In this document: positions 15,289-49,200 of the stretch, one piece after another | Position numbering within the stretch: position 1 is the stretch's first letter | Layout of the letters: every line of letters begins with the position of its first letter | Assembly: GCA_035084275.1 (NCBI GenBank) | Contig: CM068750.1 | Span: 6,696,001 to 6,760,000 of the forward strand | Origin: Hydrolagus colliei | Taxonomy: Eukaryota | Direction: 5' to 3' | DNA: 64,000 bases | Translations under genes and position numbers: made by a program | The notes under the pieces: generated by a model | Seen by the model: the letters and a program-made list of their open reading frames with translations, nothing else | Told to the model about the DNA's origin: nothing | Database searches by the model: none

Positions 15289-15349
15289 ATGTTCCGGAGG
15301 AAACTAACGGCTTTAGAATATCATAATAGCAGCGCGTTTGACTGTAAAG
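15289..15349 (+). CDS. RTRAF: RTRAF exon 1
   Basis: MFRRKLTALEYHNSSAFDCK; donor AAAG|gtacgg. Confidence 0.94.
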
Positions 15350-18300
15350 GTACGGAGTGGAGGTGGTGGGGGAGGCGAGAGGGGGCGGGGGCTGGTGGGG
15401 TGGGGTGGTGGGGGTTTCAGGCTGGTAATGGCACCGGGCGGCCTAGGCCCAACCCGTGGGGAGAGGGAGGGGGTGGAGGGCGATGCTGCAGCGTGTGTGG
15501 GTCTCGCCAACACCCTGTCTGGAAGAGAGAGAGAGAGGGAGGGAGAGGATAGGGTTGGAGGTGGGGGAGCCGGCTTTTTTCTTCCCTTTCCAACTTGCCT
15601 TCCCCTGTCCCACCCCTGGCTTGTGAATCATGGTGATTGATAATGATCTTTTGCATTTGAAATTTATTGTAAGAATAATAATAATAATACTTGCATTTGA
15701 TACAGCCGCTTTTCACGTCTTCGAGACGTGTGCTCAAAACGCTTCACAGAATATACTGCCAAGTGAATTGACCGTATATTTGTGGGCGAAACGCGGCGGC
15801 CAATGGCGCACAGCAGTGCCCCACAAACAGTGGTGGGATTGAGTGATCAAATTATTATTCATTTTTTGAGGGATTATTACTAGGCGTCAGCCTGTAATAG
15901 GAACCTAGGAAAAGCTAGACATAAGTAAAAACCAAGGTCCACACAGTTCACATTCCACATCCTGAACTACTCATATATCCCAAATATTGCCTCAGAAAAG
16001 AATTTGCATTTGAAAAGATTGAACATTTTCTTCCACCATATCCCTAGACTCTAGGGCCTAGAGGGACGGTTTTATAGATTTAACACTCATTCATTTATAT
16101 ACGCTTTCATCACAATTGGTCACCTCCAAGTGGTTTACAGAATTGACTTGGGAACCTGAGCTTGGAATGGGAGCAATTGAAAAAGTTGGGGGAGGAAAGG
16201 TGACCAAAAGTGCATTCAAACAGAAAAGTCTTGAGGAAAATAAGTATATATTCTACTAATTTTCCCATATGGACACAATTGTTCCAATAAAACATGAAGT
16301 CAAAGCATTATCATTGATCAATGTAAATGTAACTGTGTATGGCTGTTTGTGGGACTTTCGTCTGCAAATTCATAGGCCCAACATTTACAGTGAAACCATG
16401 TGAAGTACTTAGAGACATTTTGACAATGTGATGAAGCATTATATCATCTCCTCGCTCAGCTGTAAAACACTAGAAGTAAACAATATCAACATATGAAGTG
16501 GTTGCATTCCAAAGCTACAATGCAAATGATAATTATTGATACTTTAATGAGATATTTTTGCTTGTGACATTAGCTTTAAATTTGTTTTTGTCTCTTTGAA
16601 TTCCTAATGTTGAAACGTTAACAGTCTGACCTTAACGTTATTTGCAACCATAATTGATTTATTTTGTGAAATAGCTCCAATTTAGTGATCTAGGAAAAGT
16701 CCCTCTCTTGCAGGTGAATTATGTTTGTTTCATATTTTGAAACTTTTAAATTTATTCTTAATATATTTAAAATATTTTTTAACAAAGAAGTGGTAAATTT
16801 GTTAATGTGGGAATTGGTACTTGCTTTTGGTAAGTCTGGATTTGTTGGCCATGATGTATTTTCAACCTCTTGACGAGATTGTTGCTTCAGGCCCAGCACT
16901 GAAGGGAGTGGTTGGAGGTCAGAAATGCTGAGAGATAAGAGCCCTTCGCAGTAGTTGTACAAAAAAAGAGCAATTTATCCTGATGTTCTGGACAACTATT
17001 CTTTGAATTATTCGTTCGTTGATTGTTTGTGGGACCTTGTTGGTATAAGCGGCTGTTGCGACTTCGCAGACAGCAACTACAATTGACAGCAGTTTCCCTT
17101 GAAGCGCTTTGAGACATGATATCATAAAGTGCATTAAAAAAAATTATTTCTTTAGATGACATGGAATTTAAAAATTTAATTGTGTGGCTTGAAGATCAGA
17201 AGATACGACATTATAAGATTGAAGAGAGAAGCAATCTAAGAAATATACACAGTGTTGAATGGCTAAAATACTTTGCAAAGGTGAGCACTAATTTGGAGAG
17301 AGACATTTGTGTTAAATATTTATGTTTCCTCAAAAATCATCTAGTTTGTTGAGATGATGTATTTAGCAATGATTAGAGTCACCACCACTTCATGCTCCAT
17401 TATAGAGATGTGAATCCGTTTGAGTGTGAGTAATAGTGATTTCAGATTGCTCTGAAATGTCGCAGAACTGATTGATTTAGTATTTTTCTTGGAATGTAAC
17501 CAACTACTGACAAATACAGTTAACAATGGTTCGAATAAAATTTTAATTTTTAATTTTATAAATACTTATCGAGCACCGACTTATAGCCTTATGTGAAGTG
17601 AATTTGTCCTTTAACTTGATGGGTAGACCTATGTCATTTTCAATTTATATATAATAATATATAAAATTATTTAATAGTATATATTTACAGGCTGATATTT
17701 CTGAATGTGATAATCCACATTATCCATTTCAAAGTTTCAGGCACCATCATAAATTTACTATCCTATTTAAAATCAAAATGCAACTTTGATTCAGCTAAGA
17801 ATCTGTAATGCTATTGTATGGAAATCCGGCTGAATTGCTGGTGATCTTCCAAATTCCAATGCTATGAGATATCTCGAAGACGCTATATCAAATGCAAGTA
17901 TTGTTGTTATTTATTATTATTATATTTTATTTAGTACCTAGCAGATGTAGCCTGTCCATTCAAGGCTGAAGAAAAGCAGGAAAGTGTTGACTGGCTTCTA
18001 GGCTTGGCTGTGAGACTTGAATATTCAGATAATGGTATGCATCTTCTTTATCATTTATTAAATATTGTTGATTATTTGTAATGTCCACAAAGGAAGCAAA
18101 CTAATCTTTAAACCTACTTGAATTGTGTACCTTCTGAGGGTTTTTTTTAATGACGTGTTCAAGTCTTGTGTGTCATCATGGCTCAGTTGGTTGTAGTTTT
18201 TATTTAAGTTGACATATTTTTTAATGTATAGTCAAACTTATTGCATATTTAGTGAATCATTTTGAATCCTTTTCCCCCAATACAGTGGATAAATACAAGA

Positions 18301-25209: not shown

Positions 25210-28200
25210 CTGCCAGAAGGGAGGGAAAATGTTATTCAGGAAATCATGCAGCTCTGTGATTAAAAGAGTGCACACCTAAACATTTTTGGACATCACCAAT
25301 TTAAATCAACATTTAACTTATTGCACTCAACAACATTTTTAGATGTCCGAAAGCATTTTTAGAGGATGACAAGTTACATGAAGCATCAACCCCGTGCTAT
25401 GTTGCAAAACGTTAGGGCTTTAGGAAAATAAAATGCGGCTTGTGCTGAGAAATCATGGCCTTGACGTACAATCATGAATGTTGGGATGTTGCTGGAAACA
25501 GTGCCTTTAGGCACAAGAATTGTGTCACTTTACTCTGTATAATCAGAGGCTACCTGGATAAAGTAACAAATTTAATTGTGTTCCACTGATAGCGCATTCT
25601 GGAGAGGTGGGAAGAAAGTGAAACTGGAGGCATAGCAATTTTTTTTTTTTAAATGACATAAATAAGATGGTATTTTCCATCAGGAGATTTTAAGGCACCT
25701 TACCATGTGGACAACTAGGATAGGCCACAGTTATTCCATACAGGTGCGATCGTTGATCTGGTAGGAACTCGTCAGTAGTACGGCCGTTAGCTTTATTTAC
25801 AACAATAACTCCATCTCTGCAAAGGAAGGAAAATTAGTGTCACGTGAGAACTGAGTTTACATTCAGTCATTTGTAGCTGACAGTGTACTCCGTGCCATTA
25901 ATACACAAAAATATTCAAAAAACAGGATTCAGATCAGAGATCATTACTGGAGGCATATTGAAAAATAATCTATAGATTTCAAGGAAATCTAAATCCAATA
26001 TATTTAGAGACATGTATTCCATTAGACCTATATTCAGCCTTTTAAAATGGTTCTCAAAAGCCCAAATGCATAAAAGTTAAATTATTGAATCTATAATATT
26101 CAATATCAATATCTAACAGTAAAATACTTCAATTTGATACGATGCTTTGTCATGGTAAAATGTCCCAACGGAGTCCCAATTTAGGAGTTATTTTAACTCT
26201 GAGTAAGTTTATGTAGGCAAACATAGCAGCTTTGTTAGCATCTATCCACAAACAACAATCTGTTGAATGACTGATTCAACTATTCTGATTAATATGCATA
26301 AGGCTAGAAAACAAGGTAACTCCCGGCTCTTTTTTGAAATATTATAATAATCCTTGCATTTGATATAGCGTTTTCATGCCTTCTAGATGTCTCAAAGTGC
26401 TTCACAGAATATACTGTAAAGTGAATTGACTGTATATTTATGGGCAAAACTCAGCAGTCAATTGTGCACAGCAGTGTCCCATAAACAGTCATGGATTGAG
26501 TGACCAATTATTATTTTTTCTTGAGGGATTGTTATCAGGCATGTGGAGTAAGGAAACTTTCCCAAGATTTCACTCTGCCAGGAATTTAACCAAGATTTCT
26601 CACAATACAGTAGAGCAATTGAATCTTTAATGTCCACTGGCAGGTGGTAATTTGGTTTGGCATACATTTCAATGAATAGCTCCATCAAAGTTTCATTCTT
26701 ACCTTCTCCAGTCTGTGTAGTAGAAGTGATTTGAATAGGCAACAATACTAAAGGGGTAATTTAGGCCAAGCTGTACCACACGTCTTCCTGTTCCATCTGA
26801 AAATATGCACTCCAGGTTTTTGGTTCCTTTTGATCCCAGTCCCCAATAAAACATATTAGAAGAGGTGTTAGTAATCTGGGACACACATACACAGGCACAC
26901 ACATCACATGCAGGATTGTTCACCCATGTTTATTCTTTAACCTTCAAAGTCTTCATGTTTAACTCAATTTAAATTCCATCACAATACCTACCAGTTTTGA
27001 TGATTTTTGACAACTATAGATTTTGTTTTAAAAATCCTTATCTCATGAAACGTACCAGCATCAGCCCAACACAGCTGTAAGGAGAAGGGGTCAAAAGTCA
27101 ATCCATTGGGCAATCCAATGTCATCTTTAACCAAGACCCTTCTATTAGTTCCATCTATGTAAGACATCTCAATTTTAGGAGCTTCGCGATTCCAGTCTGT
27201 CCAGTAAAGGTTGCTGGAGGGAAAGCAGAATAGGGTAAAAATTAAAACAATGTTCCATATCTAATCTGAAGTCAACATAGCCTGTCATTTAGCTTTTACA
27301 GAGCAGCCCATTATCTTTTGAGGTGATCTTAAAAGGAAACATTCTCGAGCCCCGGGCTTATTTCAATTCTGGTGGAACCTGGTGGCTTTGGAGTGCATTC
27401 TACCCAAAACAATTTAGCGCAATGTGAATTTCCCTCAGCCTTTTTAACAATGCAAATACTTTAGATCAACCATAAAGTCTGGTACCAACATCTGTACAAG
27501 ATCTGCAATAGCACTTAATTTCAATTGGTGTCATATGTTGAGAAAATCACACTGTTCATTTGCCAACAACTAAAACTCCATAATTGTACCATTGACTTAT
27601 GTGAAAACCACATTTTCTGGGGGAAGAAAACAACTGTATACAATCTTCTATTTGGCAGAACTCTTTTGAGGAGAAATTAAAACATGCATGTCAACACACC
27701 CACTGAGAGAATCCACCACTATTGCTCTGGGGTTCACCAAATTGGTATCAAAGAGAACCCGCCGATGAGAGCCGTCCACCCCTGCAACTTCTATTTTATC
27801 TGATCCACTGTCAGTCCAGAACATGCGTCTGCGAAGGTAGTCTATGGTCAGCCCTTCAGGACTAGTCAGTCCTAAAGCAGAAAGAATACAAGATGAGAAA
27901 AAGCCATTTAGCTAATGCAGTGCTTGGAGAAGCTACCTCGGTGAGTGGCTCCATACAGGTGCAAGTTGTTCTTGAATCAATCATATCCTTCCAGTATATT
28001 GATTCTGACATGGTGATAGCTGATTGCATTTGGAATATTTTACAATAGTTTTGATTCCTTTATTCTGGTTCAAAGATTATAAACCATTACCAAAGTTTTT
28101 TTGGATATGGTTCTAAACTTGCTTTTTGTTTCCTGTTTGTATCCTCTGGTCCTATGCACTTGGCTGATTTTGAAAAATATTCTGGATTTATTTCTTCTGT

Positions 28201-31200
28201 ACAATTGCAAATATTGTGCTTCGCTAAATCCAGCTGCCCCTTAAATGGCCTCTTTGCAGATGAGGTTTCTCTAATCTTTCTCCATCATTCATTCCTTTTA
28301 ACTTAGTTAGTTACTGTTTCTCAAACTTTTCTAATGTTCTTCTGGTATGGGGGCAAAAGCTAAACACAGCATTCTAGGTGTTATCTAACCAGTGCATTCT
28401 AAAAGCTTTAGCGTAACTAGAAGTACAAAGAGGAGATATCAGTCAGTCACTCACAGTACACCCTGCAATTTAGAGCAAATGGTATTTGGCCTCGCAGCTG
28501 CAATTTAGGTGCCAATTGATCTTTCCTGAGAAACTTTAGAATTAGAAGCTCCACTGGTGCCTTTACCCATTAGACCATAAAGGCATGAGAAGGTCATAGG
28601 TTTCATTTCCAATTTGTGCTGAACTCACTGATCTCAGTTTGAGTAGACGTTCGGCTGCTACAAATGGTGTCAGCACAACAGGTCTAAGGAATTAAAACAT
28701 CAGCCATGGTTCCCACACTTGATTTCTATATAGAAGCCCCTGTTGGATGGAACGGCTGTATGGATAAGCTTGGGCTCACTGTGATATCCAACTCCCTCCC
28801 CCACAGTCAAACAGCCTACAGACATTCATTCTCAATGCTCATAGATACATATTGCCCTCTGGGGTGAAGTTCCGAAAGGCACTTATGCCAGTTGGGAAGA
28901 TACCTCAGTAGAAGGAAAGATAAACACCCTCAGGGAAGGAGGACAGGAGGGGGAATATTGGAGGAGAAAGTAGCTATTTAATGAATGGTGGCAATAATCC
29001 TTGCATTACTCTGACTGAACTTTATATTCCAGTACTGTACTTAATTCACGCTACTGCCTTTGGGGTAACACACAGATATATCTGTAGGCTAGACTTATGC
29101 ACCCAAAAGATCTGTATTGCTCAATGTTTCAATAATGGGTTCAATACCGCATTCAAAATGGGTGCACTGACTGATTATTTAACTATGGGAGGCATCACAG
29201 AGGAACCAATCCTTTCCTCACTCAACATTTATACATATGGAAGATGGTGTCGCTTCGTAGGTCACTGGAGATCAATGGTGGCTGGAAGCACTGGCTATCA
29301 GCACAAACCAGGGATCTATCCTATGGCATTGCTGATCTCCACATCTCAGGATCCCACCATTTACAGAATATACTGTAAAATATAGTGACAGCATATTTTA
29401 TGGGTGAAATGTGGCAGCCAAAATTTATATGACGTATAATAATGTACATTTTTTTAAACAAAATGTTTACAACAGATTTTTTAAAAAAACAAAAGAGTTC
29501 AAATGATTTGGATTGATGTAAAAGCACACATTTCTGAAAAGAAATTCTAAAAGCAATTGTTATTTCAACTTACCTGAATTAATCACAATCTCTGGCTCGG
29601 CGCCAGTTTCCAAACTAATTCGGTTAATGGTCCGGCCAGCGACATCAGTCCAGTATACCATCTTTTCCCGACAGTCATAATCGATTCCAATAACAATGGA
29701 ACCCTTGGAAGAGGAAAGAAAGACCCAGGAGAAAAATATTAATCATTCAGCACAGCTCTAAGAAGTTCCCACAACAGAATCCAATGTGAGAAGCTTGTAG
29801 ATTTGTCTAACTGCCAGAGAACTTATCATTTATTTATAGGATTGAAGTTACTGACTTGTTTGAACAGACTTGCATAATTTACAATTTGCTTAAACTACCT
29901 GTCCCTTTGGACACATTTCCCAAATCTCCACATATAAAGGTAATGTGCTAGATCACATAGTAAATAATTCATCACAGCTGTTGGCAAAAACAAAATTAGA
30001 TCACTGTAGAGATAAGGGTTTATGGTGCTAATAAGGAGAAGAAAATTGTTTTTGAGGGGAAACAAAACATGCAAAAATTGAGTTGCCTTCAAATCAATGG
30101 TTTCTATGCAAGTGGTACACTTAAGCTGGTTCACAGAATATAGTATTACACCAGTTTTATGCATAGACCAAATGTGGCAATGATTTAGTGAGTGTTTAGA
30201 AAAAAGCTCTGTTGCCAATTTGTCTGTGTGAATGTGTGATCACGTTCACAACATCTGCAGTTGCATTCGATTCGTTCGTAGGGCCAAGTGAATGTGCTCA
30301 TTTTCCATTCTCAGCTGGACTAATCGTCACACAGCTTTTCACTGTAACCAAGAAACCATGGCACTTCCTTTGTGGTTACAATGGTTTTCACCTCTGGACA
30401 GATCTTGCACTGATCGGGTCTGGTGAACTCGGGTCAAGTCTGTGCTTGATTTGGCATGATTTCAACTTTGAGCCAATTGCATATGTGTTGAATAAATGTC
30501 CTTGCCCTACCTTCACCCCCCCACTCCCACCACCCCCCCCCACCACCACCCCTTTTCCCAAGTGCTAAACAGTTTTGGGGTATCCCAGAGGAGAAAGTTA
30601 GAAAAGAAGGTACATTACATGGAGAGCTAACAGGCTCTTGGCTCCTTCTTTGTTTAACTGAGTACCATTCAGGGGAAGGTACCCAATGTGCTGTCCCTGA
30701 GCATATAAAAGGAAGGTACCAGTAGATGGAGGGGTCACAAGAGGTGATGGAGTGGACCGTACAGTGGGAGGTGCAACAGTTGGTATACCTGGCAAATTCA
30801 ACAAAAGAAATATGAAGCACATTAGAAGCACATTTCACCTACAAAATACACAGTTAATTCAGTTTACAGTATATTTTGCGAAGTACATTGTAAATATCTC
30901 AGCGTCGTGCTAAGGCACTTTATCAAATGCAAGGATTATTATTATTACAGATATATTCCTTATGAGCAATGGAAGGTTACATAATTGCACTTTCACCAAA
31001 AGGTAGAACTAATAAAAGTAATACTCACTAAATATCATAAGACTGTAAGACGTGAAATAATATCGATAAGATGTGAAAAGTGCTATATCAAATGCAAGGA
31101 ATATTATTATGACACAGCATTGAAAGACAGAGCTATTTAACAAGAAATGATTGGGATAGTGGGTAGGAAGTGAAATTAGGTACTAAGTGTTATGGAGTGG

Positions 31201-34200
31201 AAGATGTGATTCTCACCAGCTGTATCAATGAAGGATTATATAAATTTACTGCTTGATTTTTTTTAAAAAAGCAATGAATTGTTGGTTAAACCAAGACATC
31301 TACAAAATGACATATTCTGCTGTCTCTGAGATATTCTGGGATTGGGGGCACTTAATCACGGCCTTGAGTGGGCATAAAGCTTTAGATCTGTTTAGATGTA
31401 CACATATATTCATACTCATGGCATTTGTCTAACCAGTGAGGGCAAGAGAACTATTCCCATTGACATTGTTTTACACTGACATGCACATCCCACCCTGTCC
31501 AAATTCATTCATTAAAGTGAATAGTATCAAATTATCAGAGGTGATCCCCCCCATTTAAATACCTGTAATATGAACTGCTATCAGAGTCATATCAAAAGCT
31601 CCAGCCACCTCCCATTCGCAGCTCTGACCTAACCAATCATTTCCAATCATTTGTTTCTTACTAGTAATTTTGGCAGATTGGTGCCCCCTCTCCTCATACA
31701 TTTCCCACGCTTGGCATTTAGCGGATTTATTTTCTTCTTCAAGTTTCTCTTAAATAAAAAACAATTTTATTCACTACCAGAATGAAAAAAAAGGTTCTCA
31801 CATGCTGGAAGAATGCCAGTCTGGGTTCCAGTTCCTTGAATTTCTCGACCATCTTTATCCACACACCAACACACACGGTCTCCACGACACTGCATGGGTC
31901 TAAAGTTCCCATAATCGTCACACTGGGGGATGTACTGATCTGCTGATGTCCTGCTATTTTCTGACATCTCTCTCCATCGTTCACACAGAGTCTGTGGGCT
32001 TGTTGTAGGTTCTGAAATCCATTTTAATGTGCCACGTTGAATAGAATTTCCTCACTTTGGTTTACAATATTGCTTAATGAGATATATGAACTAATAAAAT
32101 ATAGTTTATAGCTCCAATTTCAACGGCAGAACTAATAGAGAATAAGGGGAGCAGTTTATGAGTTAGGAGGTGATTTATTAGTCAAAGAAATTAAAGTGGT
32201 TTTAATAGGAAACTCAATGGAACATGGGTGCTTGTTTAACTTCAGCGATTGTATGATTTATAAAGATAACACTCATTCGAGTTTTATTGTACATCCAACA
32301 TTCAATCCATAATCAATCTATATCGTTAGATAAGGCATGTAAATGGTTTGGGATTTCTGTATTCTAACTAAACTGAACTATTCATTCAATTAACTGAACT
32401 ATAAATTATGTGCAGCAAATACTTGTATATAAATCTTTTTTATAAAGGATAAAATCACAGATTTTGATTTTGATTTGTAAGACCAGCTGATTCAAGGAAA
32501 CCATTCCCTTTGTCCATGGTCAAGTCGATACAGGACTTTGCATTTTCACTGCCCTACATTTAAAAAAGATTTGTTTCCCTTTCTTGGCACAGAAGCAGGA
32601 AGATCAGTAAGAGAATAATGCCGTACTCCAGGTTAAAAATCATTCCTTCTCAAAAAGGAAACCATTGTGACTGACCTGGAAGACCACACCGTGGTTGATC
32701 AGCTCCGGGGAAGGTTCTGGTTCCAGGGATTTCCTCTCCCCTTTCATTCACACACCAGCACTGGCCAATACTGCTGTGACATTGAAGTGGCCTGAATTTG
32801 CCTTCATCATCACACTCAGGAGCAAAGAAACCAACAGAAGGTCGAGCTCCATATGAACTGTATTCTACATTCACTCTGTCTCGCTGGTCCTCACATGCAG
32901 TCTTTGGACGTCTTGTTGCTGCAAATCAAAGGCAAGTTTGACAGCTTCTCTATAACACTTTTACAAAACAATGTACATGGTTGAAACAGCTTTGGACTCA
33001 GCCCAACCACACGAGTCTCCACCCATTGCATTACTCTATCTCATATCCTTCTATTCGACTCTCTCTCATCTGAAGGTCTAGCTTCCTCTTCATTGCATCT
33101 ATAATAATAATTTTTAAGAGTCCTTGCATTTGTGTAGTGCTTTAACATGTTATCACGGTGTCTCAAAGCGCTTCATAGGAGTTATTGTGAATTGGTGCAT
33201 CTGTGTATCAATTTCATACCAAAGACAATGATAAATTACAGGAAAGAAGGTTTAATTTCACACATATATACTTCTGGAATATGTGAATACAGTATTTTAC
33301 AAATAGAGTGTTATAATATGTTTCCAGGAAAATTAGTTTAACCGGTACAAACTGTGGGAAACGAATGTCAAAATGCCAATATTCAGCTACAATTTATAAA
33401 AGTTTACTGTAAATAATTTTTTGTAAAGATTTTTTTGGACAACTGATTTTGGAAGAAGTATTTTTTTTTAAAGTGTAATCCAGACAAACATGTTTGAATT
33501 TATTTGAAAACGACGCTAATTTCTGGTCATGTTTCTATGACAAAATATGCCCTGAAAATATTTTAAAACATTCCTTCCATCTTTTAATTCTCTGTGGTAT
33601 TTCACTCTGTATCAGTTTACATTCCAGCTGTGTTTAAAATCAGCATTTCTCTGCATGGACAATTTAAAGCTGTCTTTCTTCTCAAAAACTCATCCTATTT
33701 GCCACAAACATCGTGTGGAATATCAGACATAATAAACCGGCAGTTAACTTTACTAACAGTTTACTAACAGTCCCAAACAGATTACTATAAAAATGACATA
33801 TTATCTATTCAACTCATCAGTCTTATGCTTTTCTCCACCCTATTACAGTACATACAAAAAATCTTGATTCATCTATGGGACATTACCTCCTAGACCCTGT
33901 GTTAAATCCTTGTTCTGTCAGATTCAAATCAAATGTTGGTATTCAATGGAAATCTATGCTTTGGCGCAAAGCTAAGCTTTGACTGTCCTGGCAGCTCAGA
34001 CTGTGATTGACTTTAACCAGAAAAACACTTGAATTAGAAATCTCTGGGTCCCACGAGTCTGCACCCCATCAAACAAGATGTTTTCTTCATGGCATTACAG
34101 GGGCAGATCGGATCCAAAGTGACACTCAGGTCCATGGATCTGAAATCTACATTAATTTAAACATGGGTTCGATTTCCAGCTCATCATCATCCATAGATTT

Positions 34201-37200
34201 GTTTGAACGTATGAACCAGTCGAGGACAGCTGCAAAGGTTCCTGCATTCAAATGGGTTATTCATCAGCATTTGCCAAACAAAAAATATTGATTGACCTAA
34301 CGGCCCACACTGTTGTGGAACAGATCCAGACGGTGATTTGCTTCCAGGAATTTCCCGGCCCCAAACATCAACACACTAGCACTGGTCTATGCTGCTGTGA
34401 CATTGCAGTGGAACGTATTTGCCTTCGTCATCACATTGGGCCACATAGCTCCCGAATTGTGGCCAAGATCCACGTGGGCCAAACTCCGCTAGCGCACTGT
34501 CTCGCTGCATCTCACAAGCTGTCTTGGGACGTTCAATTGGTGCTGATCAAATGAAAACAAATTGGTTTTTCGAAACTATTGCAAAACAAAAGCACTGAGG
34601 GGCATTCTGACTTCACAAACCATCAGTTTTCCATCAGTCAAATTGCTCGCTTTAGGTCATATTAATACATCTTCTTACACTCTTGTGTGAATACAACAAG
34701 AAAAGTAATCAGGGATCTCCAGCTGGCCATACTTTATACATAAAAAGTCTCGGAACAATTTGAACTGCTCCATTATTATACCAGTCTTGATCACCATCCC
34801 AAATTAAAACTACATTAACTGACCTGGCATCTCACAGTGTAGCTGATCCGTTCCAGGTGGCTTTCTGGTTCCAGGAATTTCCCGTCCCCATTCGTCCACA
34901 CACCAGCACTGGTTCCCAATGGTGTGGCACTGCATAGGCCTGTATTTGCCATGTTCATCACACTGGGGAATGTGGATGGTGAAATGGGGTCTATCTCCAC
35001 GAGAGCTGTACTCGGCTTGCAATCTTTCCCGCTGATGCTCACAAGCAGTCTTTTCACGGTCAGGAATAACTGAGCAAATGAAAAGGAAATGTAGACAGTT
35101 TTACAAATGACAGCAGAATAAAAACAATGGAGACATTTTTTGACACCTTGGCTTAAGCTCAACTTTTCCACCCATTCACATGGAGGGCAATGGAACTTGC
35201 AAAGGTCAAGGATACAAATGTCGAGGCCCTCCTCCTAAAATGTGATCAATAACTTGAGTGAAAAATATAAGAAAATTGCCTAGTCCCTAATATTGGTTTC
35301 CCTCAACTAATTTGCATGACACTTGCCACACAGAACGATCAAAAAGGTAGACAATGTTACCTACCTTGGCTACCTTACCTTATTTCAATCTGCATTGAAT
35401 GGCCCTGTCAAATAGTTCAGATTGTCTTACACATTTGCCACTTTAAGATCACTGCAAGACACATAATGCCCATCAGTTCCTCTGCCTAAGAAACTCATAA
35501 AAGGAAAAAATAAAGGAATATTACTACTGTATAACTAAATGAAAGTGGTTGGTGAAAACCGCTGATTGCTAATGCTTGATCTAAAGAAGACAAAGTGAAC
35601 AATTATACAATGAAGGCAGGGCATGTGATGCACACAAAATTTGAAATGTGTTAAAGCAGCCATGTTCCATTGATGTTATGTGTAACAGTTTCCGGTACTT
35701 GACTTTAAGGGTAATGAATATTCAATTAACACAACACTGACTGACCTGGGAGCCCACACTGTGGAGCATTACTTCCATGTGATGTTTTTGTCCCATCAAT
35801 CTCCCGTCCCCAGGCATCCACACACCAACACTGGCCGACACTCTGGTGGCACTGCCGTGGAGTGAATTTTCCTTCTTCATCACATTGTGGGACATAACGT
35901 CCAGGGTGTGGTCTCGGTCCACGTGGACTGAACCCAGTTTGCATTCGGTCTCGCTCCTGCTCACATTTGGTCTTTGGACGGCCTGCTGATCATCCATTTC
36001 GCATTAAACACTGTCTGTGCATTTGATATTACACCACTTCAGATCAAATACATCCATAAAGCATTATTACAGTGTTAAGAATCCTTGCGTTCAATACAGA
36101 AAATGACTACATCACCCAAAAGTCTTAAAGCAATACACTGCAAAGTGTAGGGGCTGTGTATACCAGAAATATTTAAATCGAATACACATCTAATTAAGAA
36201 GTCAAATGTCCACATTTACACAATAACTACATTTTATTTAGAAAATATTCTTTATAGGGGGTTAACACTGCAAAAGCACATTGGAATTTTTCAAATCACA
36301 TTAAATCCAGATAAAATATGTGAGTCACTTAATATAAGAAAAAGCAGGGAATGCAGATGCAGCATTCATGGTTGGAACGTTAGATTACTTTCATCTGTCA
36401 AATAAGATTACCAGGATTAAAGATAATTTGTTCAATTTTTGAAGGGTTCTATAATCAAGATTGCTTTGTTTTTGAAGCTATTGCAGAGACGTTAGTATAA
36501 CATTTAAAAATGTATTGCTAACTGGAAAGAACTTCCATTATTATAAGTCTTTATTACATTGAAACAAACTTTTCAAGTCACTTCGCAAGTAATTAAGCAA
36601 TGTCAAAATTGTTTGGTCATTAAAGAAATGAGCCATTTGAGCCAGTAAAGACACACTGACAAACAAGAGTTGAACGACCAATTTATCTGTGGATTATTGG
36701 CCAGAATTCCAGAAAGTACTCCCTTCTCTTCAACTCATGTCATAAGATCATTAATATAGGAGAATAGGAAGTGTGGGGGCTTGTATAGAGTTTAATCACC
36801 AGCATGGATTATTTGAGTCAGTTTCCATCCTCTATCATTCCATGCAATTTGGAGTGATTTGTCCGAACAGGGAAATGGGATCACAGTTTGTCTCATCCAA
36901 AAAACAGCCAAGCACTCCCCCAGCATCACAACAAAATGTCAGCGTTCAGACTAAGAGTTATGTTCTGACATGAAGTTTGAAACCACAACTTTCAGTGGGC
37001 GGAGGAGTTGCCACGCTGGGATTTCTGCAGCTGGACAGCTCAGGAGTCACAAGCACAGGGCTGGTCAGTGAACGGCCAACATATTAAACTAAATTCAATC
37101 GCTTCCAGGCCACATTCTCAGAGCAGTTTCAGGAGAAACCAACTCAACTTGGCAAGTCTTCTCGAGATCAACAATAAGATAAAGAAATTAGAATCTCTTC

Positions 37201-40200
37201 TAATTTGTGGGGGTTTTTTAAATTAAAAATCGTATAGTAAAATATATCCATTGCAGATTAAATGTACATACATGTCACAGAAGGTGCTCCACTCAACCTT
37301 TTTTGAATCCGATAACACAAAGCATTCCAGGAAATCCCACGGTTCATTTACAGGAAACCGAGCTACTATAAACATTATGTTCTGGATTCTTACCAGGCCT
37401 GCACTGTAAACCATCTCCTTCATAGCCAGGGTTACATTGACAGACGAAGGAGCCTGGGATATTGTAGCAAGTAGCAGCTGGGTGACATCTGCCTTCAGTA
37501 CATTTATCAACAACTGTAATGAAGACAGCAGAGGCACATAGTCAAATTTTGTTTAACCTCTCATTTTCCTCTCCTCCCAATAAAGGAGTGATTTGTGCTG
37601 GAATGCAGTTTCATGAGTGAAAGCGGTAGGGCTCTGCAGCTCAATCAAGTGGCCATTCACTACATGAACCTTTGGACATTCAGCAATGTTAGGCATCATC
37701 ACAGTGGAACCCCTACCTTGTCCTTAAGAATATTCCAGCACAGAAGGAAGCCATTTGGCCCATCTTGCCTGTGCCAATTCACTTTCGAGCGGGTGGGAGG
37801 GGAGGCAATGGATAGCAATTTTCAAAGGTCTATGTTACAATGGTTTGTCAATGATTGTGCCTCTATTCTTCAAGGAATAAATCTGGGATAGGGGGCTGAT
37901 TGGATGAATACATTTTACACTGTTGGTCTCTGAGAATCTTCAAACTGGTCTTTATTCATGTGTTACTGCCATTTCACATTCCCAAAGGAGATCATTCCTG
38001 GTGTTATCAGGAGTCATTTTTGCTTAGCTTCGAAACCTGCATTACTATTTCCTCACTGTGACTGACTGTGGACCCTTTTTTCTAATAACAACAACTTTGA
38101 TTTATATAGCGCCCTCCATGCCGGACAGTGTCTCAGAGCAGTTCTGCATGCACTGCAGGTAAACATCACAACTCAATATACTAATTAGTGGGAACTCAAA
38201 TAAAAGGGTTAAAAGAGCGATTTCAATATCCATTTCACTGAGAAGTTAACGGACACTTCCCCCCCGTATAACAGAATCTATTTACATTCTGAATTTAACA
38301 GGATTTTGGGGGTTGGAATTACTTCAGCTGTTCTTTAATGTCAAGTCAGCATTGATACTCCAGTGAAAAGATGTTTAGGTTCACGCTGATTTCTTCAAAC
38401 TAAAAGGTTTGGGATTAATCAACACGAGGGAGCCAGTTCTTTCCATGTTTGTTGCATCTCTAACAGCTGTAACTAATTTAGGCAAAATACACATCTTTAA
38501 TCCTCAAAGGACTAAAGGTTTTTAGATTGGGGAGGAGGGTAAAAGATCTTCTGTTACATTTGCTTTCCACAATGACAACAAGCTGTAACATAATGGTGAT
38601 TACAGGGCACATTTTGGGATAAGGCTCAAACATGTCCTTGGAGGGATATACGATGAAACAATTCATGTGCAACCTTTTATCCTGAGGTCACAAATAAGAT
38701 CACGGTTAGACACAATGCCAACAAATCCCTGCCTGTATCCCTTCCTGTAGGCAGTGAGTTGTCAAACTCAACCAAGCCTCCAAAGCAAAGAAGCTTTTCC
38801 TCTGGGGAGCTCATCTGTAAAATGCGGTAACAATCTGTGAAAGCTATTTTCAGTCAATTTGCTACCATCATTATGTCATAGAAAGACAGCCAGACAATGG
38901 CTATCATGTTGGGGATGGGATCGTTGGCCAGATTGCAAGGCAGGAGTTCTAAAATACCTGAAAAAAGCATGCAGCTTTTGAAACAAAAAGTAAAGTCGGA
39001 TTTCAAATGGTGAATTTCAGGGCTACTCAATTTGGTCAGACCTTTGGAGCAGGAAAGTTTGTTGACATTAGACTGATGCTGGTTTAATAATAATACTGCA
39101 TAATGCTTGCATTTGATGTAGCGCCTTATCGTATCGTCAAGACTCGAAACCCTTTGCAGGATATACTGTAAAGTGCACTGTATGGATAAATCACAACAGC
39201 TAAATGTGTACAGGAAAAGCTTTAACAGTGAGGTTCTTAATTGGTTAGACACACAATAGAATGAGCCCAAACGGAAAGCAAGTCACTTGGAAGACTTACG
39301 AATACACGTGCGTCCGTCCTCTGCAAGCTTGTAGCCGTGGTGACACTCGCATCTGTACAATCCGGGGAGATTGACACACCCAGCATGGCTTCCGCATCTA
39401 GGGTAAACACCATCAGCACATTCATCAATGTCTGAGAAGGAAACAAGAATCTGGTTACCATAGAATTCCCTCTGGAAGCGAGTAAGTCAACAGGTCGGCA
39501 AGTTTGCAAGTCAGAGGCAAGACCTACAAAGCCGTGTAATGTAATGGTCCAGTTGATCAACACAGCTTTAAATACTTAGAAAGCACAATTTGGACGGAGC
39601 AGGTCCAAACTTTTTTTTCTTTTTGAAGAATGTCTTGGCTCATTCCGAACCGCAATAAGCATTCTAATTACCCGTTTGTCGTACAGTACTTAAATGAGTT
39701 TCAAAATGGTCCAATTTGTGCGACCAACGAACTGGCAAAATAAATGAATCACATCAGGAATAGATGGAAGACTGGACGATTGTTGATTCATCATAAAGGA
39801 TCTGAAAAATAGCTTCATAGTTAGGGTATGTACCAAGATGTTACATTACTGTATACCATAGCAATAAAATGTAATGCACAGCAATCTACCAGGAGTGATG
39901 CAGTGCAAAAGATTGTGTCACACAAACATCAGAGGTGTAAAATAACTGGGGTATAACACTGTTGGGAATAGGTGTAAACATGTTTTTTGCTTGGTAAAGA
40001 GTGGACATTGTTGGCAGTGGACAAATACTAACCCTTGCATTTTCTTTGATTCACTGATTCTAACAACTAATATAGCTGGAAATGAGAAGTCCTATTCTCC
40101 TCTACTTTCTCATTATTTACAATTTCTTTGAATATTGCTACTTCTATGGCTTGTTTTCTTGTCTAAACTCCTTGCCAACCTGCCCGGCCCCTCCGTTCAG

Positions 40201-43200
40201 CGGGCTCTGGTCTGCTCCATGACTTGCGCCCGACCCGCCCGGGCTTTCAGTCTCTCTGCCCCCACATTCCAGAACTCCATTCCACTGTCCCTGCGCCTCG
40301 CTTCCTGCCTTGCCTTCTTCAAGGCCGATCTCAAAACCCTCCTTTTCGATGATGCCTTCCGCCACCCTCCTAACTCTCTCCCTCCCCCACGCTCGGGCCC
40401 CAATCCCTGACTGTTCAGTGCCTTGGGACGTCCTCCGGACATGAAAGGCACTCTGTAGATATAATTTTGTTGTTGTTGTACAGGTTCCAATGGGTTATTT
40501 GTGTAAGCCCATAGTTGTTTTCCTGGGGAAGGGGCAGGTAAACTGAATCTTTAAATCTCGCTGGCGTATCTCCTCACCAACTCAGAGCAAAAATGCTGCA
40601 GTATTCACCCACCAGTGCAAACTTTTCCATCTCCTTGGTATCCCTCTGCACATCTACAAAGGTAGGCTCGTTCAGCTTCAGGGGAACATTGAGCATTGAC
40701 ATCACAATCATGACTTCCATCATAACACGGATTCACAGGTTCAGGCTCCAAATGATCTGTCAATGACACACAGAAAAGAATTACATTTTAAATGTTTTTC
40801 CTGAAGAGGAAATATAAGATTTAAGAAAGCGGATTTAATTCTATAAAACCATGTGTATGATTATCATAAAACAAAGGGAATATCTGACAGAACAGGATAC
40901 TGATATCATTCAACCAAAAACCTGCAGAGCCAGTAAAACAGGCAGATTATAGTCAATGATCTGGAACTGATTAAAGAAGCTGTAGAGTATGTTATACTGG
41001 CAGGAATAACGGCAACAAAGAACATTCAGTTGCCATAGACAAAATCAACCTTTTCAGCCTCCATACCCTGTGGCGAAACGGCAGTCCATTCTGAGACTCT
41101 TAAGCATTCATGGCCTTGCTCCCTCATATCTCTCCAACCTGCTGTCCCCCTATGAGTCTGCCTGCCTACTCCATTCAGTGGGCTCCAGTCTGCTCCATGT
41201 CCCCCATCCGACCCGCCCTACCCGCGGTGGACAGGCTTTCAGCCTCCCTGTCTCTTCACGCTGGAACTCCATTCCACAGTTCCTTCGCCTCGCTTCCTCC
41301 CTCGCCTGCTGCAAGGCCAGTCTCAAGCCCCTCCTCTTTGATCATGCCTTCTGCTGCCCCCCTATCTCTCTGCTTCCCTTCACCCCTAACCTTCCCCTTG
41401 CTCGGGTCCCAACCCCTCACTGTTCAGCACCTTGGGACACCCCCCTGATGTGAAAGGTGCTCTATAAATGTACGGTTATGGTTGTTATAGTTGTTGTTAT
41501 GTGTCCATGAACCACAGAAGAATAACCATTCCTGGAAATTAATCATGAAACTCCAGCAGCACAACTATTCTCAGGTGAGGCTAAGTCTCCAAAATGTTTC
41601 CCCTCTAGGGAGATGTCCTCACTCACAGCTGGACACATCTTTGAGGTTTGTTTGTAATCATAATAAACGGCAGTTTTAAATATGCCACTCTCCTGATCAT
41701 ACAGGGTTCCATGTTTTGGACACTTCTCTATGACTAACAGCAATTAAATTGTAAATACAGTACAACAATCCGCACACTTGAGTTTCTTTTAGTTTGTTTA
41801 GAAAAAGAAAACACTGTAGAAATGCTTTATGCAGTAGAATGAAAGATGTCAATTGCAAAACTACAAGTGGTGGAAATTTTCTGTGAAAGAGATGAACAGT
41901 AACTCTTTGCTAAATAGCTCACTACCGAGAAATATAGTAATTAGTAAAAATGCAAAGGAAGTGGGTTATAAAAAGCAATTATAACCCACTTCTTTATGGT
42001 ACAAATTTTCAGTTTGTGTTCCTGTACCAAGCACTTAACTCTTTTTCCTACACAACAGTCTTCAGTGGAAAAGCCTTGTGCTTTTTGGAAGCTCATTACC
42101 ATTCTCATGATCTGTTTTACCCAGACACTTTATAGCATCCATTAAATCCTTTGACTTCCTGACCTCAGGCCTGTAGCCAATTTATTCACTTACTCCCAGT
42201 AAAAGAGCTTTGTTGAGATCAGACTTGTATGGAGTCTCTTTCTTTCCCCCTTCAAAATGACCTTGGTGTTAGGTCATTTTTCCCAATGCTCTCCACCCCC
42301 CCCCCCCCCCCACCACCCCACCCACCACACACACACACCCCGCCGCCTTTATGAATGTCCGTTTATTGCTCAACATTTGTGCAAATACCTTCTATACATG
42401 AAGGAACAAAAGGAAGGCAGGGGGTGGAAAGCTTGCAAACAGTGTTACTGGTGAGAAGAAATTAAATGCATTGTTCAAGGTTCTGTTGAACAATGCTTCT
42501 GTCTCAGCAGGTGCAAGTAGCTGTGTTGTTCAACTTGCAATTCCTTGCATTGACTGCTGACTCCTCAATTCCAACAGCATGGGACCATATTGGGTTTTTT
42601 TTAAATGTCAACTGCACATTTATTACTGTCTATCCAGAGCCTCATCATTCAAAGTACACAATTGCATTACATAAAATTTCCTAGCAGTATTCCAGAGTAG
42701 ATCGGTAGTAAAAGAAATGAAGGAGAATAATGAGTTATTTACCTTCGACAGAGCCAATCTCATTAGTCATTGCATATCTAACTGCTTTCTCCTTCTGGTC
42801 ATATAACACAAAAACACGAGCAACATTCAGTTGTTGAGTGGTTGTGAAAGTCCTGGATGTGCGTTCACAGTCATGGAATGTGATATTCTGTCTCAAATCA
42901 TATCTGAGTGTCTGTGTCTCACCATTACTGGAAAGAACAGAATACTCTCTGTTGGCTGTAGATGTCAAAACTGTGAAGAAGAAGTTTGCAGAAATGAGAA
43001 GCATCTGACAACCATTTTAAGGATTAAAGAAAGTTACAAATCAAACAAAAACAATGGCAAACACATTATCAACTGCCGTCTATGTTTTGTGTTTTTATTT
43101 GGGTGTCATTAGCAATATGTCAGCCTCTCTGCTGAGTTCTTAAACACAGGCGTATAATGTAAAATTGGTTTATTTTTTATTGAAAACAATCATCAGAATA

Positions 43201-46200
43201 TTTCTGCCCAGATCGACCACGTAATTCAACAAAGACAATTGTCCTCCCATACCTGAGTTGGAGCGATGGTAGACATCCCTATATGGCTGGATCTGAACTG
43301 AAGCACCATGGGGTATAACAGGGAGGTGGCCCTCAATCTCTGTGATAACACTCAGGTAGCTCTGTGTATCCAGACCCTGAGCAACTTGTATTATATTTAA
43401 CCTCTCGTTGCCTGGATAGAATGTGATGTCGACATTCCGGATAAATTTAGCACCTACAAAACACAAATAGCACCACGCAAGTGACGTATTATAATTAAAC
43501 AAGAGTGAATTTCCATTGGTCAATGTACTCTGGAACTCTATCCCACAGCCCCTTCACCTCGCTTCCTCCCTCGCCTTCTTCAAGGACAGTCTCAAGACTC
43601 TCCTTATCGATCATGCCTTCTGCCGCCCACCCACCTCTTTTCCTCCCCTCCCCCCCACCCTGCCCCCACCCCATGCTTGGGTCCCGACTTCTGATTATTC
43701 AGCTCCTTGGGACGTCCTCCCGACGTGAAAGGCGCTCTATAAATGCAATTTTGTTGTTGTTGTCAATAAAGTTACTATTGTTCTTAGGGTGTGCTTGTAA
43801 TGGGAAAATAATTTATAACTATAAATAGTACACTCTGATCAAAAAGGAACCACCCTTTGGTCTCTTTCTATAATGAATTAGTTCCTCTCAGCCAGGTTGT
43901 TGGCGATTATCATTATAAGGATAACCCCACATTGTGGTTGATAAGCTTACTGACCAGCAGAAATGTGTACTAGATTAGTTACCTTTGTTTAAAAAAAACT
44001 TCCTCTCTTTCCTCCTGTACCACTGGCTGGTACAACAGAGTAGTATCATGTGTATTTACCAGGATCCTTTACCATCCTTGAGTGGTCTTTCTTCAAGCGT
44101 GGAAAGGATGGTTCAATGTGTAATTCAACCATGCCTACCACATAGCCAACACACATCCTGTTCTCACCTGACAATGGATGCACTTATCTCTGTCTTATCA
44201 GTGCAACTCCTATAGCATGGGACACAATAACCATTGGTTGAGTTTGCAATTAAAAAAATCTCTAATTCTTTTCAGTTAAGATGCAAATATAGAGAAGACC
44301 ACTGCTGGAGGTTGTAGAACATTTTGTAAAATTTTTACTTATGATAGTACAGAATATACACACACACACACACATATGTGCAAGTTCACATATCTATCTG
44401 TGTGTGTCACTCCTTTTGCTTTCCTGACTCGAACCAATCATTCAAATCCTCACTAACTCTTTTCAGACACTGCATTTTAAACTATCAGTCCAGACATCCC
44501 AGTACACAAACACCCCATGACTCTATCATGCTGGGTTTCAGTCTGCAATCCATTCAATGGCGCATTTTGATGAAGTGAAAATTTTTATTTGACACTGTTT
44601 CCCCTTTGTTTTTGCCACCCTTTGATGTCTGTAAATAGTTTTGAAATCCTCCCCCTGGGTACCTGCTCTGCTCCTACACATCCCAATATCCAAAAGCATT
44701 TGCACTTCCAAAAAGGGGTTTATTGAATAGTGGTCAGCAACAGGAATCCTGGTTAATTATCTCCCTTCACTTTTCAAAGGCATTGAAAACCTCCTCTGGA
44801 AACCCGAGTGCGAGACTAACTTTGCACATAGTATTATACTGAGCCACAGTATATTGACCCAACCGAACAAGTACATGAAAAATATGGAGTCCAGGAGCAA
44901 CACAATCAAAGGAAAAGAGTTTTCTTCCCAATGTTGGTGTTCAGCACTTTGGTTACTGTACCTTTTTTGAAAAGAACATATTTTTCTTTGCTACCTTTCA
45001 GAGCCATGACAAGTTCCAAGAACACAACTTAGTAAGGAGAATATAACGGAATAAGAGGCTGGGCAGCAAATAGGCAAATAGGAATATGAGCTTCCATACT
45101 AATTCAATACTGTTGATTCATCTATAAACCTCACCAACAACATCTTTAGAATGGACAAAACCCCACTGAAAATGGGGTTTGTTTTGAACTTTTTGTTGTG
45201 TTTCAGGCAAGCTGGACCACTTATTCAAATAGTTTCACTCAGAGAGTAAGCCCTGGAGACAACAATAATAATAATTATTATTATTAATCCTTGCATTTGA
45301 TATAGTGCTTTTAATATCTTCTAGATGTCTCAAAGTGCTTCACGGAATATACTGTAAAATGAATTGACAAAATGTTTTGTGTGCAGCAGTGTCCCACAAA
45401 CAGTTGTAGAAAAGTAGAGAATTTATGGGTAAAATATGGCAGCCAATTGCACATAGCAATGTCGTACACAATGATTCGAACACAGATCTCATGCTTGTAA
45501 GGCGAGTGCTCTAATCACTGAGCTACAGGACTCCACAAAGAGTGGAGCCAATATAAAGAGTGGTACACCAAGGATATTATCCCTCTCACTCAGATGGCTG
45601 TGAAAGTGGACTGAACTTGTCCTGTAATAGCTATAGTGTCAGGAAATCTTCTGTGTTCACAAGCTCTTGCAAAAGGAAATGGATCCAATAAAGGAAGTGC
45701 TACACTCATTGAATTTGGCTTTCCACAAACGCATTCAATAAAAACAAGATTGAACCTATTACATTAGTTACTACAAAGTGATGAACTGGGTGCAGGATGT
45801 TTTCTGGCATTGGTTTAATAATTCTATGACACTATCCACACACCTATCAATGGTGAAAGTCTGAAATCCACATTTTATAAACTAAATGATATAAACTAAT
45901 GCCCTCCAAAGTAACAGATTTTTTTCAGAATATCTACAAGCAATTCCTAGCCAGTACCTACTTTTTTTTATTCCAAAGTATCTAATCTGTTTCCCAATCA
46001 GAAATGAAAACTTCCATAATCTAATGCAGGGATTTCCGTATCTAAAAAATTGCTAAGGATTTTCAATATAAATTAAGCAGTGTAAATGATCTACCTGTGA
46101 TCCTGAAACCATTTTTGAAGCCTGGTTGCTGCAGTGCAAAGAGCCATCCAAAAAGACCTCCAATCACTGACAGCGGTTGCAGTGCCCAACCAACTGACTC

Positions 46201-49200
46201 GGGGATATGACTGATCGTCGTATAGGCTCGCCCGTCACTTACAACCACATAGGCATGCATGTCAGCATTGCGGATCTCCACAGGTGAGCGGCTGGCTCCA
46301 ACCACAATTTTTACATTCACTTTTCCATTCACACGCTGTGTGGCACCTGCAGAGAGTTTAATCAAAGAATTATTTCAACGTATGGCTGCCAATTGTTAAG
46401 GAGTTATTAGGTACAAAGAAACATCAAAACGGAGTTGCACAGTGTAACAAAAGATTTTAATGACCTTCTACCAGACATTGCCGCCCATTTCCATAGTAAC
46501 CGGAATGACAGTGGCAGCAGAATCCACTGGAGTAATCTGCACAGTAGGCATATTGGGAACATTGACCCTGGTTTCTTTCACAGGTTTCTCGAGGATCGGT
46601 ACTGTAAGTGAAAACTGAAACACAAATAATGCCTTGGTCAGTTTGATTTTTGGTCAGTGGATAGTCTGACACATGTCATGCTTAAACATATCCTTTGCAA
46701 GCGTCAGGGACCATCATCAATGGACATCAAACCCTGATGCCCAAACCACTTTGCAAAACAAAATAAAATGTTAACAGTAAATTAGTTCCTCGTATTCTCC
46801 ACAATCACTATCGAAACCTTTTTATTAAAACCATTCTTCTCCACGTTTCATTATTTTCCAAACACTACAATGACAATGATGTTTGTACAAAATTACATTT
46901 ATAGAGTGCCTTTCTGATCGGGAGGACATCCCAAGTCCTGCAGTTTGGTTGCTGTTATAAATTGGCTAAACGCATATCATGATTTTAATTGATATACACA
47001 CAACAACGACACAATCACTTAAGATTAGCCTGAAAGTTCTGATGTTGGAAATACAAACAAGAATTTCAGTATACTTGTGCGCTAGTCTGTGTTTTCAACA
47101 AACAGCAGAGAATTATACAGGGCACAATTTTAGGAACCTCTTTTCTGGCCATAGTACATTAAATAACTTAATCACAACTTTGTTTTTCAAATAAATTTTT
47201 CTATGCACTTACCACCTGTGCCCAATTCCTCTTCTTCTTCCACGGAGACCACACGTCTATCAGGTGCGGCTGGTAATGGATTTCCAAGCAAAGATTCAGA
47301 CTCTGGGTGTCTCTCTCGGTGTGTTTCAGGGTGTCTCTCATGGTGTGTTGCCGCAGGGTTTGGGTATCTTTCACTGTGTGTTTCTGGGTGTCTCTCTCGA
47401 TGTGTTTCATGGTGTCTCTCTCTGTGTGTTTCACGGTGTCTCTCTCTGTGTGTTTCAGGGAGTCTCTCTCTATGTGTTTCAGGGAGTCTCTCTCGGTGTG
47501 TTTCAGGGAGTCTCTCTCGGTGTGTTTCAGGGAGTCTCTCTCGGTGTGTTTCAGGGAGTCTCTCTCGGTGTGTTTCAGGGAGTCTCTCTCGGTGTGTTTC
47601 AGGGAGTCTCTCTCGGTGTGTTTCAGGGAGTCTCTCTCGGTGTGTTTCAGAGAGTCTCTCTCGGTGTGTTTCAGAGAGTCTCTCTCGGTGTGTTTCAGAG
47701 AGTTTCTCTCGGTGTGTTTCAGGGTATCTTTCACGGTGTGTTGCCCCAGGATTGGGGTATGATTGCCTGGCATCAGCTTCTCCATACCGCCGAGGGTTTG
47801 ATGAAGGATACGATGGCAAACCCCAGGCCTCGGGATAGGAAGACACCACACCTGCCTCTGGGTAGCCTTCAGGGTGTGGTGGAATAATGCCTGCCTCTGG
47901 ATATGGTGGTTGCTCTGGAATACCATGGACCCTTTCCCGGGGATCTGTGGGTGCTAAAGGTGAGAAATCTAACGTTTCATCGTCTTCTTCATCAAATCCT
48001 TCATCGTAATCATCAGCCTCGGAGTATTCAGATACAGGTAAATAAGGTTTAACTGGGCCATTTAAGGTGCTGTCTAATGTCACAATAGCCTCTCGCGAAG
48101 GTTTTCCTCCGGCTTGTGCTTGTATTACATTGTTGAACTGTGAAGCTCCACCAATATGGAAAATCCATACTCCTTGAGTACCTGAATTGCCCATCCTTCA
48201 GGATCAAAAAACAACAAGATTAGAGTCTATGTTACTGTGTACATGTCTGAATGATATGCATTATATATGTATACTATATATATTCTTTACAGTTATAAAT
48301 CCTGAAATGTTTTATTGGTTGGCTTCCAACATTGATTTCCTGACCTGCCATTTAAAGGAATTTTACTTTAAACAGAGGGACATTATTAATTGTTAAGGCC
48401 ATCACAAGCTTCCCCATCTGTGAAGGTTACAGAGCCCTCAGTCTTATGGATCTTTAAAACTGGGTATTCATGGAGATGTAGAGACCAAGGAGGTTAAATA
48501 TTTTGCATTTCTTGCTGCATGCAAGAGTTGGTTGGCCACATTCATATAGAAAGAAATGCCAAGCAAATGGTTCAAATTTCAATAAACAAAATCTGAGTCA
48601 ATGGCTCACAATTTGATTATTTGCTGCTCAATAATACAAGAGGTGACACTGAGCAAAGCTGAGATCAAAAGAAGGGGCTGTATGTTGCACACAGGACACA
48701 GCTTGAGATATCATTCAGATGATTTAAAGTACATCATAGCCAACACCCTCTTCTGAATCATGCAAACCCTTCATACTCACTGATAAAGATTCTTCACACT
48801 TTGCTCATTGCTTGTTAGACTATAATAAGGCTCATCTCTCTTCCACTGTATGTACTCAGTTTCTCCTCTGCTGAAGCCCACCCGAGCAGGTAGTTCTATT
48901 TGAACGTTGTAGGATTCCTTAGGTCGAGTGCCAAAGAACTGCAGCCCATCTTCTGGGTATAGAAAGATTGCATAGGTGTTTGACTCATCAAATGCCAACA
49001 CTGCCTGAAAGGTATTGAACTAGAAGAGAGAAATATGCATAAATCCCATTTAGTTTACACGAGACTGGCAACCTTAAGACATCTCAGAAAAGTGAATCCC
49101 TTTAAATACACACCCGAAATAGTAAACTGCTCAATGCACATGTGGAACCAGTATTGAATCAAAAAGTACTGTCCTATTGAGTAACAATTGCACAGTAACT

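Follow-up and report, generated by a model that had tools for sequence, protein, structure and literature searches.

Decayed members, or pseudo-exons, of tandemly duplicated cassette-exon arrays are a general concept, of which non-inclusion in transcripts and neutral evolution of the decayed copy are a part. A different fate is described for human NARF exon 8, where a genomic UAG within an alternative exon is converted to a Trp codon by A-to-I editing; there, editing depends on an 81%-identical inverted Alu 25 nt away and reaches nearly 100% (PMC1852406). In the premature-stop-codon-correction genes of fungi (PUK1, FgBUD14) a change of UAG to UGG also restores a conserved Trp, which in FgBUD14 is joined to alternative splicing, but the enzyme in fungi is ADAT and not ADAR, and the editing is stage-specific, with some of the sites conserved across species (PMC11156358). 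Nidogen-2, a component of basement membranes, binds collagen IV through its G2 domain and laminin through G3 (PMC10972974), and its thyroglobulin type-1 (TY) repeats number six in zebrafish and two in mouse, with the last two zebrafish repeats alone adjoining G3 in a predicted structure (10.1101/2021.11.24.469833). A literature search, outside of which most subscription journals lay, returned nothing on stop-codon editing in cartilaginous fishes or on the exon described below, and nothing on the variation of NID2 repeat number in fish beyond these zebrafish and mouse counts; nothing on NID2 was found in the literature on the birth and death of tandem exons.

The window analysed here is a stretch of 64,000 nucleotides of the holocephalan Hydrolagus colliei (assembly GCA_035084275.1, contig CM068750.1, forward-strand positions 6,696,001 to 6,760,000). 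Mapping the nidogen-2 protein models of Callorhinchus milii onto this window yields a 22-exon gene (Table 1), which is assigned to nidogen-2 by its domain order and by its best matches, which are NID2. Five TY exons, A to E, are present and all are phase 1, and one of them, exon C, carries a nonsense codon; the remaining 21 exons provide 1590 codons with neither stop nor frameshift, and no N occurs in the window. Nidogen-2 of C. milii (UniRef A0A4W3IYC2) has the same domain order, shares 74-100% identity per exon and contains one-to-one orthologues of TY exons A, B, C and E. It differs, as known here from predicted models, in having a Trp in repeat C and three D-type repeats, whereas the window has one D, one relic and a stop in C.

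Table 1. Features of the NID2 locus in the window (all on the minus strand).
Feature	Position	Strand	Remarks
NID2 coding span	25690..51232	-	22 exons: NIDO, linker, G2F, EGF, TY array, LDL-receptor class B repeats
TY exon A	35746..35985	-	intact; 78.5% identity to C. milii; poor pyrimidine tract
TY exon B	34824..35069	-	intact; 81.2% identity to C. milii
TY exon C	34297..34542	-	246 nt, phase 1-1, one nonsense codon
Amber codon at the CWCV Trp position	34376..34378	-	codon 1202 in the spliced frame
Short local hairpin	34372..34399	-	4 bp, 2x2 loop, 5 bp, 6-nt loop
Exon C donor, intron bases gtcaat (+5 A)	34291..34296	-	gtcagt in exons A, B and D
Decayed TY exon relic	33977..34240	-	5' end approximate; many indels; donor GT to GA
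TY exon D	32676..32918	-	intact; 88.5% identity to C. milii, which has three D-type repeats
TY exon E, terminal, adjoins G3	31802..32011	-	intact; 88.4% identity to C. milii

Exon C is bounded by the acceptor ttgatcag/CAC and the donor TAG/gtcaat (minus strand, 34542-34297), encodes six Cys and matches the thyroglobulin type-1 repeat profile PF00086 with 58.7 bits (Pfam cut-off 20.6), but its CWCV motif does not lie in an open frame, the genomic reading being C*CV. The preliminary description of the exon, namely 246 nt with AG/GT sites, all six Cys and a TAG at 34378-34376 where every intact sister exon has TGG, was reproduced in each of these points, with TGG in all four sisters (A, B, D and E). 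The same holds for its statement that inclusion truncates the protein before G3, since the frame then ends at codon 1202 of 1673; direct joining of B to D instead leaves an open frame of 1590 residues that retains G3. Further details were borne out in part. The Trp, called invariant, was found in 1105 of 1109 unique repeats taken from 123 proteins, the other four having no CxC match, so that the term is apt for nidogen-type repeats, but in thyroglobulin repeats Tyr and His occur at this position. The donor said to be weakened at +5 does depart from the CAG/gtcagt of A, B and D, but this is a weak sign of decay, as 4/16 non-TY NID2 donors (exons 5, 6, 8 and 17) also have no G at +5. Of the consensus changes listed, G>D is specific to the window, at a position where exon B has Asn in both species. 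P>A is a weak sign of decay too, for the consensus Pro is missing from both species, with Ala in the window and Thr in C. milii.

Nonsense-mediated decay (NMD) is elicited by stop codons that precede a junction by more than 50-55 nt, and the amber codon lies 79 nt upstream of the 3' junction of exon C itself, with more junctions further downstream, so that NMD is expected for transcripts including C. The acceptor has a good pyrimidine tract (12/17) and the donor, judged by its match to the consensus, is not weaker than several non-TY donors of NID2, so that skipping of C may be incomplete.

The closest proteins to exon C are nidogen-2 models of C. milii, and in a tree exon C is grouped with repeat 3 of C. 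milii with a support of 100/100. This repeat reads CWCV, which answers the question, raised in the preliminary description, of what a related species carries at this site: the Trp has been kept, and the stop is therefore not common to that lineage, Chimaera and Callorhinchus having separated ~187 million years ago (PMC12952989). For holocephalans besides C. milii, comparison of exon C with longer proteins gave five matches among 17 candidates, four from C. milii and one from a pipefish, and comparison with proteins of 44-142 residues gave no candidate. At the level of short motifs, CHSSI is found in both C and D of the window (34372-34410 and 32751-32789, minus strand), while C. milii has CHSST in C and CHGSI in D, and the DNA of C and D is 74.5% identical over 149 nt compared with 67-70% for full-length pairs; this similarity may reflect an old, short gene-conversion tract.

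How long ago the exon was damaged can be approached from its substitutions. Identity to C. milii is 63/81 (77.8%) for C, compared with 62/79 for A, 65/80 for B and 69/78 for D, and pairwise dN/dS among the window exons lies at 0.30-0.44 where C is one of the pair and at 0.32-0.38 between its sisters, indicating that exon C has been constrained through most of its history. Asymmetry between the two lineages was assessed from tree branch lengths and from outgroup counts. The end branch leading to window C has a length of 0.41 and that leading to C. milii C a length of 0, in a tree of 81 columns with a long stem and many unresolved forks, and against seven shark outgroup repeats C shows 7-9 window-only and 2-4 C. 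milii-only changes. The ratio of 9:3 for C may be set beside 6:6 for A, 6:7 for B and a gene-wide background of ~2:1 (32-36 window-only vs 16-21 C. milii-only), and the excess in C is not significant, either against the whole gene (Fisher p 0.51-1.0) or against A and B together (12:13, p 0.17). Of the columns with a conservation of at least 90% that C. milii C retains, C departs from four, the stop included, as against two each for A and B and none for D. If 10-20% of mutations are disabling, the presence of a single lesion permits at most ~13-28 later neutral mutations, which suggests that the loss was recent. The change of this codon to TAG accounts for 3.8-4.9% of the nonsense-mutation weight of exon C, and by arithmetic the Trp-to-stop transitions at its three Trp codons together account for 23-29%, every one of them formally reversible through A-to-I editing; the position of the stop is thus mildly unusual, not extraordinary.

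Repeat number in the array is itself variable. Nidogen-2 has seven TY repeats in C. milii and 11-26 across 18 elasmobranch proteins, and the range for cartilaginous fishes extends from 5 to 26 among the sequences compared. Wide expansion of NID2 TY arrays is seen in fish, with up to 26 repeats in Scyliorhinus canicula, more than 20 in seahorses and many predicted isoforms. In 13/14 comparisons between isoforms of the same species, which are database predictions rather than measurements, what differs is whole repeats, in 16 blocks with 77-84 residues per CWC, the fourteenth pair showing mismatches only. This pattern indicates that TY exons are interchangeable cassettes of variable number. One copy in the window is already eroded: ~60 nt beyond the donor of C lies the TY relic noted in the preliminary description, which proved real (nhmmer E 2e-4; a local score of 66, where 200 shuffles each reached maxima of 54-55). 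No further relic turned up when the introns of the TY region were scanned.

Taken together, exon C is best explained as a recently disabled cassette exon in a tandem phase-1 TY array, a reading to which a probability of about 0.75 is given; this figure and the grading of the alternatives are judgements and were not computed. Exon C combines a disabling lesion with the possibility of being skipped in frame, and it resembles known decayed arrays in that symmetric-phase duplicates are present of which one has a nonsense codon and one is eroded; non-inclusion and neutral evolution would be further points of likeness. A single G>A transition would have turned TGG into TAG, after which transcripts that skip C (B to D) would encode a full nidogen-2 of 1590 residues with four TY repeats, while those that include it would meet the premature stop and be removed by NMD. 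Redundancy among the repeats and their variable number would account for tolerance of the lesion, which may be fixed or may still be an allele. A recently dead exon had also been ranked first in the preliminary description, and this rank fits the evidence, since an in-frame skip leaves a full protein, TY repeats turn over fast, a relic adjoins the exon and the C. milii orthologue retains the Trp. Several points speak against the disabled-cassette reading: the excess of window-only changes in C is not significant, in identity and dN/dS exon C resembles its intact sisters A and B, its splice sites may not allow complete skipping, and its sole lesion hits the one Trp of C that lies in a hairpin with an A-C mismatch (see below).

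The resemblance of C to A and B bears on the possibility of a base-call or consensus error, in which case the genome would truly have TGG and exon C would be a normal coding exon. An allele or assembly error had been placed last among the earlier explanations; it deserves more weight than that, given that, the stop apart, conservation of exon C is close to that of A and B. An error would need to concern only one base, and PacBio CLR or short reads underlie the published holocephalan assemblies (PMC12952989, Table 1). Those listed there include Chimaera phantasma, Hydrolagus affinis and C. milii, along with resequencing data for 18 C. phantasma and RNA-seq covering seven tissues. However, the other 21 exons are clean, the change is a plain transition, and the donor and several residues of exon C have shifted as well, so that a sequence error is improbable.

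The last of the points above concerns RNA editing, in which an inherited local hairpin would let ADAR turn the UAG into UGG and some of the transcripts containing C would yield a protein with five repeats; in this case it would be editing that made the mutation tolerable. The codon is indeed a UAG whose editing would restore a conserved Trp. In the hairpin A34377 lies opposite C34394, with a G-G mismatch on the 3' side of the A, and an A-C mismatch within UAG is the optimal context for ADAR (PMC10661471). Folding recovers the hairpin at 4/5 segment sizes between 51 and 201 nt. With a strict filter, no more than 3/259 UAGs of the pre-mRNA pass at any size, this site being the sole one at three sizes and one of three at the fourth, and the hairpin appears in 12/400 synonymous recodings; this rarity counts against a simply dead exon. 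NARF exon 8 provides a precedent (PMC1852406). On the other hand, the strict filter was drawn from this site post hoc, and a looser one is passed by 9-31/259 UAGs. Folding is weak (z = -1.0 for the hairpin and -0.13 for the 401-nt region), and the probability of the 3' stem falls to 0.00-0.04 in contexts of 301-801 nt. By a helix score the site ranked 8/22, and 18/22 in a version that admits hairpins centred on the site itself. When the Trp codon of exon D is made amber in silico an equal geometry results at 2/5 sizes, while A and B give it at none; as C and D have nearly identical codons here, the hairpin is inherited, and a G>A change in any G-C pair yields an A-C mismatch automatically.

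The preliminary description had found no obvious complementary partner for editing, which is accurate for long duplexes but overlooks the short hairpin in which the A is placed opposite a C. The best duplex that the 41-nt segment around the site forms with the remaining pre-mRNA reaches -36.2 kcal/mol, with exon D, and is surpassed by 15/24 control UAG segments; no inverted repeat touches exon C among the 25 longest of 130, and thus no long duplex with a nearby inverted complement was found. Exon C therefore differs from NARF, having only a predicted, interrupted hairpin of 9-12 bp, and it differs from the fungal sites in that the TAG is absent in C. milii, the one holocephalan compared, whose predicted models have a genomic Trp. 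Among the 123 proteins compared none has an X, an asterisk or a U marking a corrected stop. Rescue by editing is accordingly a slim prospect, as is its fuller version, in which the hairpin inherited by C and D would pair the middle G of the Trp codon, the G>A change would have provided a ready-made A-C mismatch, and ADAR would repair part of the transcripts while NMD removes the rest.

Deep conservation is usual for regulated poison exons, and they are typical of genes for RNA-binding proteins, which counts against the proposal that inclusion of exon C serves to lower NID2 output through NMD. Such a role would suit the canonical splice sites and the position of the stop relative to its own and the later junctions, and dosage matters for zebrafish nid2a, since knock-down to 40% shortens embryos (PMC5583359), with a nid2a nonsense transcript reported to undergo NMD (10.1101/2021.11.24.469833). 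Yet the stop is not conserved, C. milii having Trp, and the protein-level constraint typical of a coding repeat is still visible in C, so that a regulatory poison exon is just as doubtful as rescue by editing.

It is very improbable that the UAG is read through, or that intronic polyadenylation gives rise to a truncated, secreted nidogen made up of G1, G2 and the rod and lacking G3. Tyr is one of the residues inserted at UAG in readthrough and is tolerated at this position in thyroglobulin repeats, but the context TGC TAG TGT GTT matches none of the readthrough motifs with which it was compared. A stop after Cys4 would leave paired cysteines if the C1-C2, C3-C4 disulfide pattern of TY repeats holds, and the truncated protein would retain the collagen IV-binding G2 and lose the laminin-binding G3; intron C-D, however, has poly(A) hexamers at expectation (3 vs 3.3), for which reason intronic polyadenylation was rejected. 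Cryptic splice rescue was likewise rejected, as the stop is followed by no in-phase acceptor and preceded by six in-phase GT sites that make poor donors; selenocysteine is dismissed because the codon is TAG, and an altered genetic code because translation table 1 gives a normal reading of the remaining 21 exons.

Several further observations concern other parts of the locus. No pyrimidine tract in NID2 is poorer than that of exon A (5/17; 35985-36005, minus strand); this exon has in addition a tandem CAG CAG acceptor (35985 or 35982) and two window-specific changes at conserved columns, and may also often be skipped; the tract of NID2 exon 21 is comparably poor (6/17). In exon 4 (47300-47760, minus strand) a 24-nt unit encoding ETHRERLP is repeated in tandem within the G1-G2 linker; the repeat found there in C. 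milii is longer and of the NPGATHPERY type. An Rfam search over 25000-52000 gave one weak tRNA-like match and nothing near exon C; the match (45469-45525, minus strand, 31.5 bits) lies within a dispersed repeat family and is probably a tRNA-derived SINE. A short frame starting with MFRRKLTALEY, in a GC-rich stretch (15289-15351, plus strand), has no Pfam match and resembles the start of RTRAF/C14orf166, a gene neighbouring NID2.

Were editing to take place, exon C would represent one of the rare instances in vertebrates where editing corrects a stop in an old coding exon, a nonsense mutation would persist in a vertebrate coding exon without a repeat-derived duplex, and editing would set the number of TY repeats in nidogen-2. 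If exon C is instead a recently disabled cassette, the locus would be a snapshot of ordinary turnover, in which intact copies stand next to a newly broken and an eroded one, and its value would be modest, lying in its display of the variability of the fish nidogen-2 rod.
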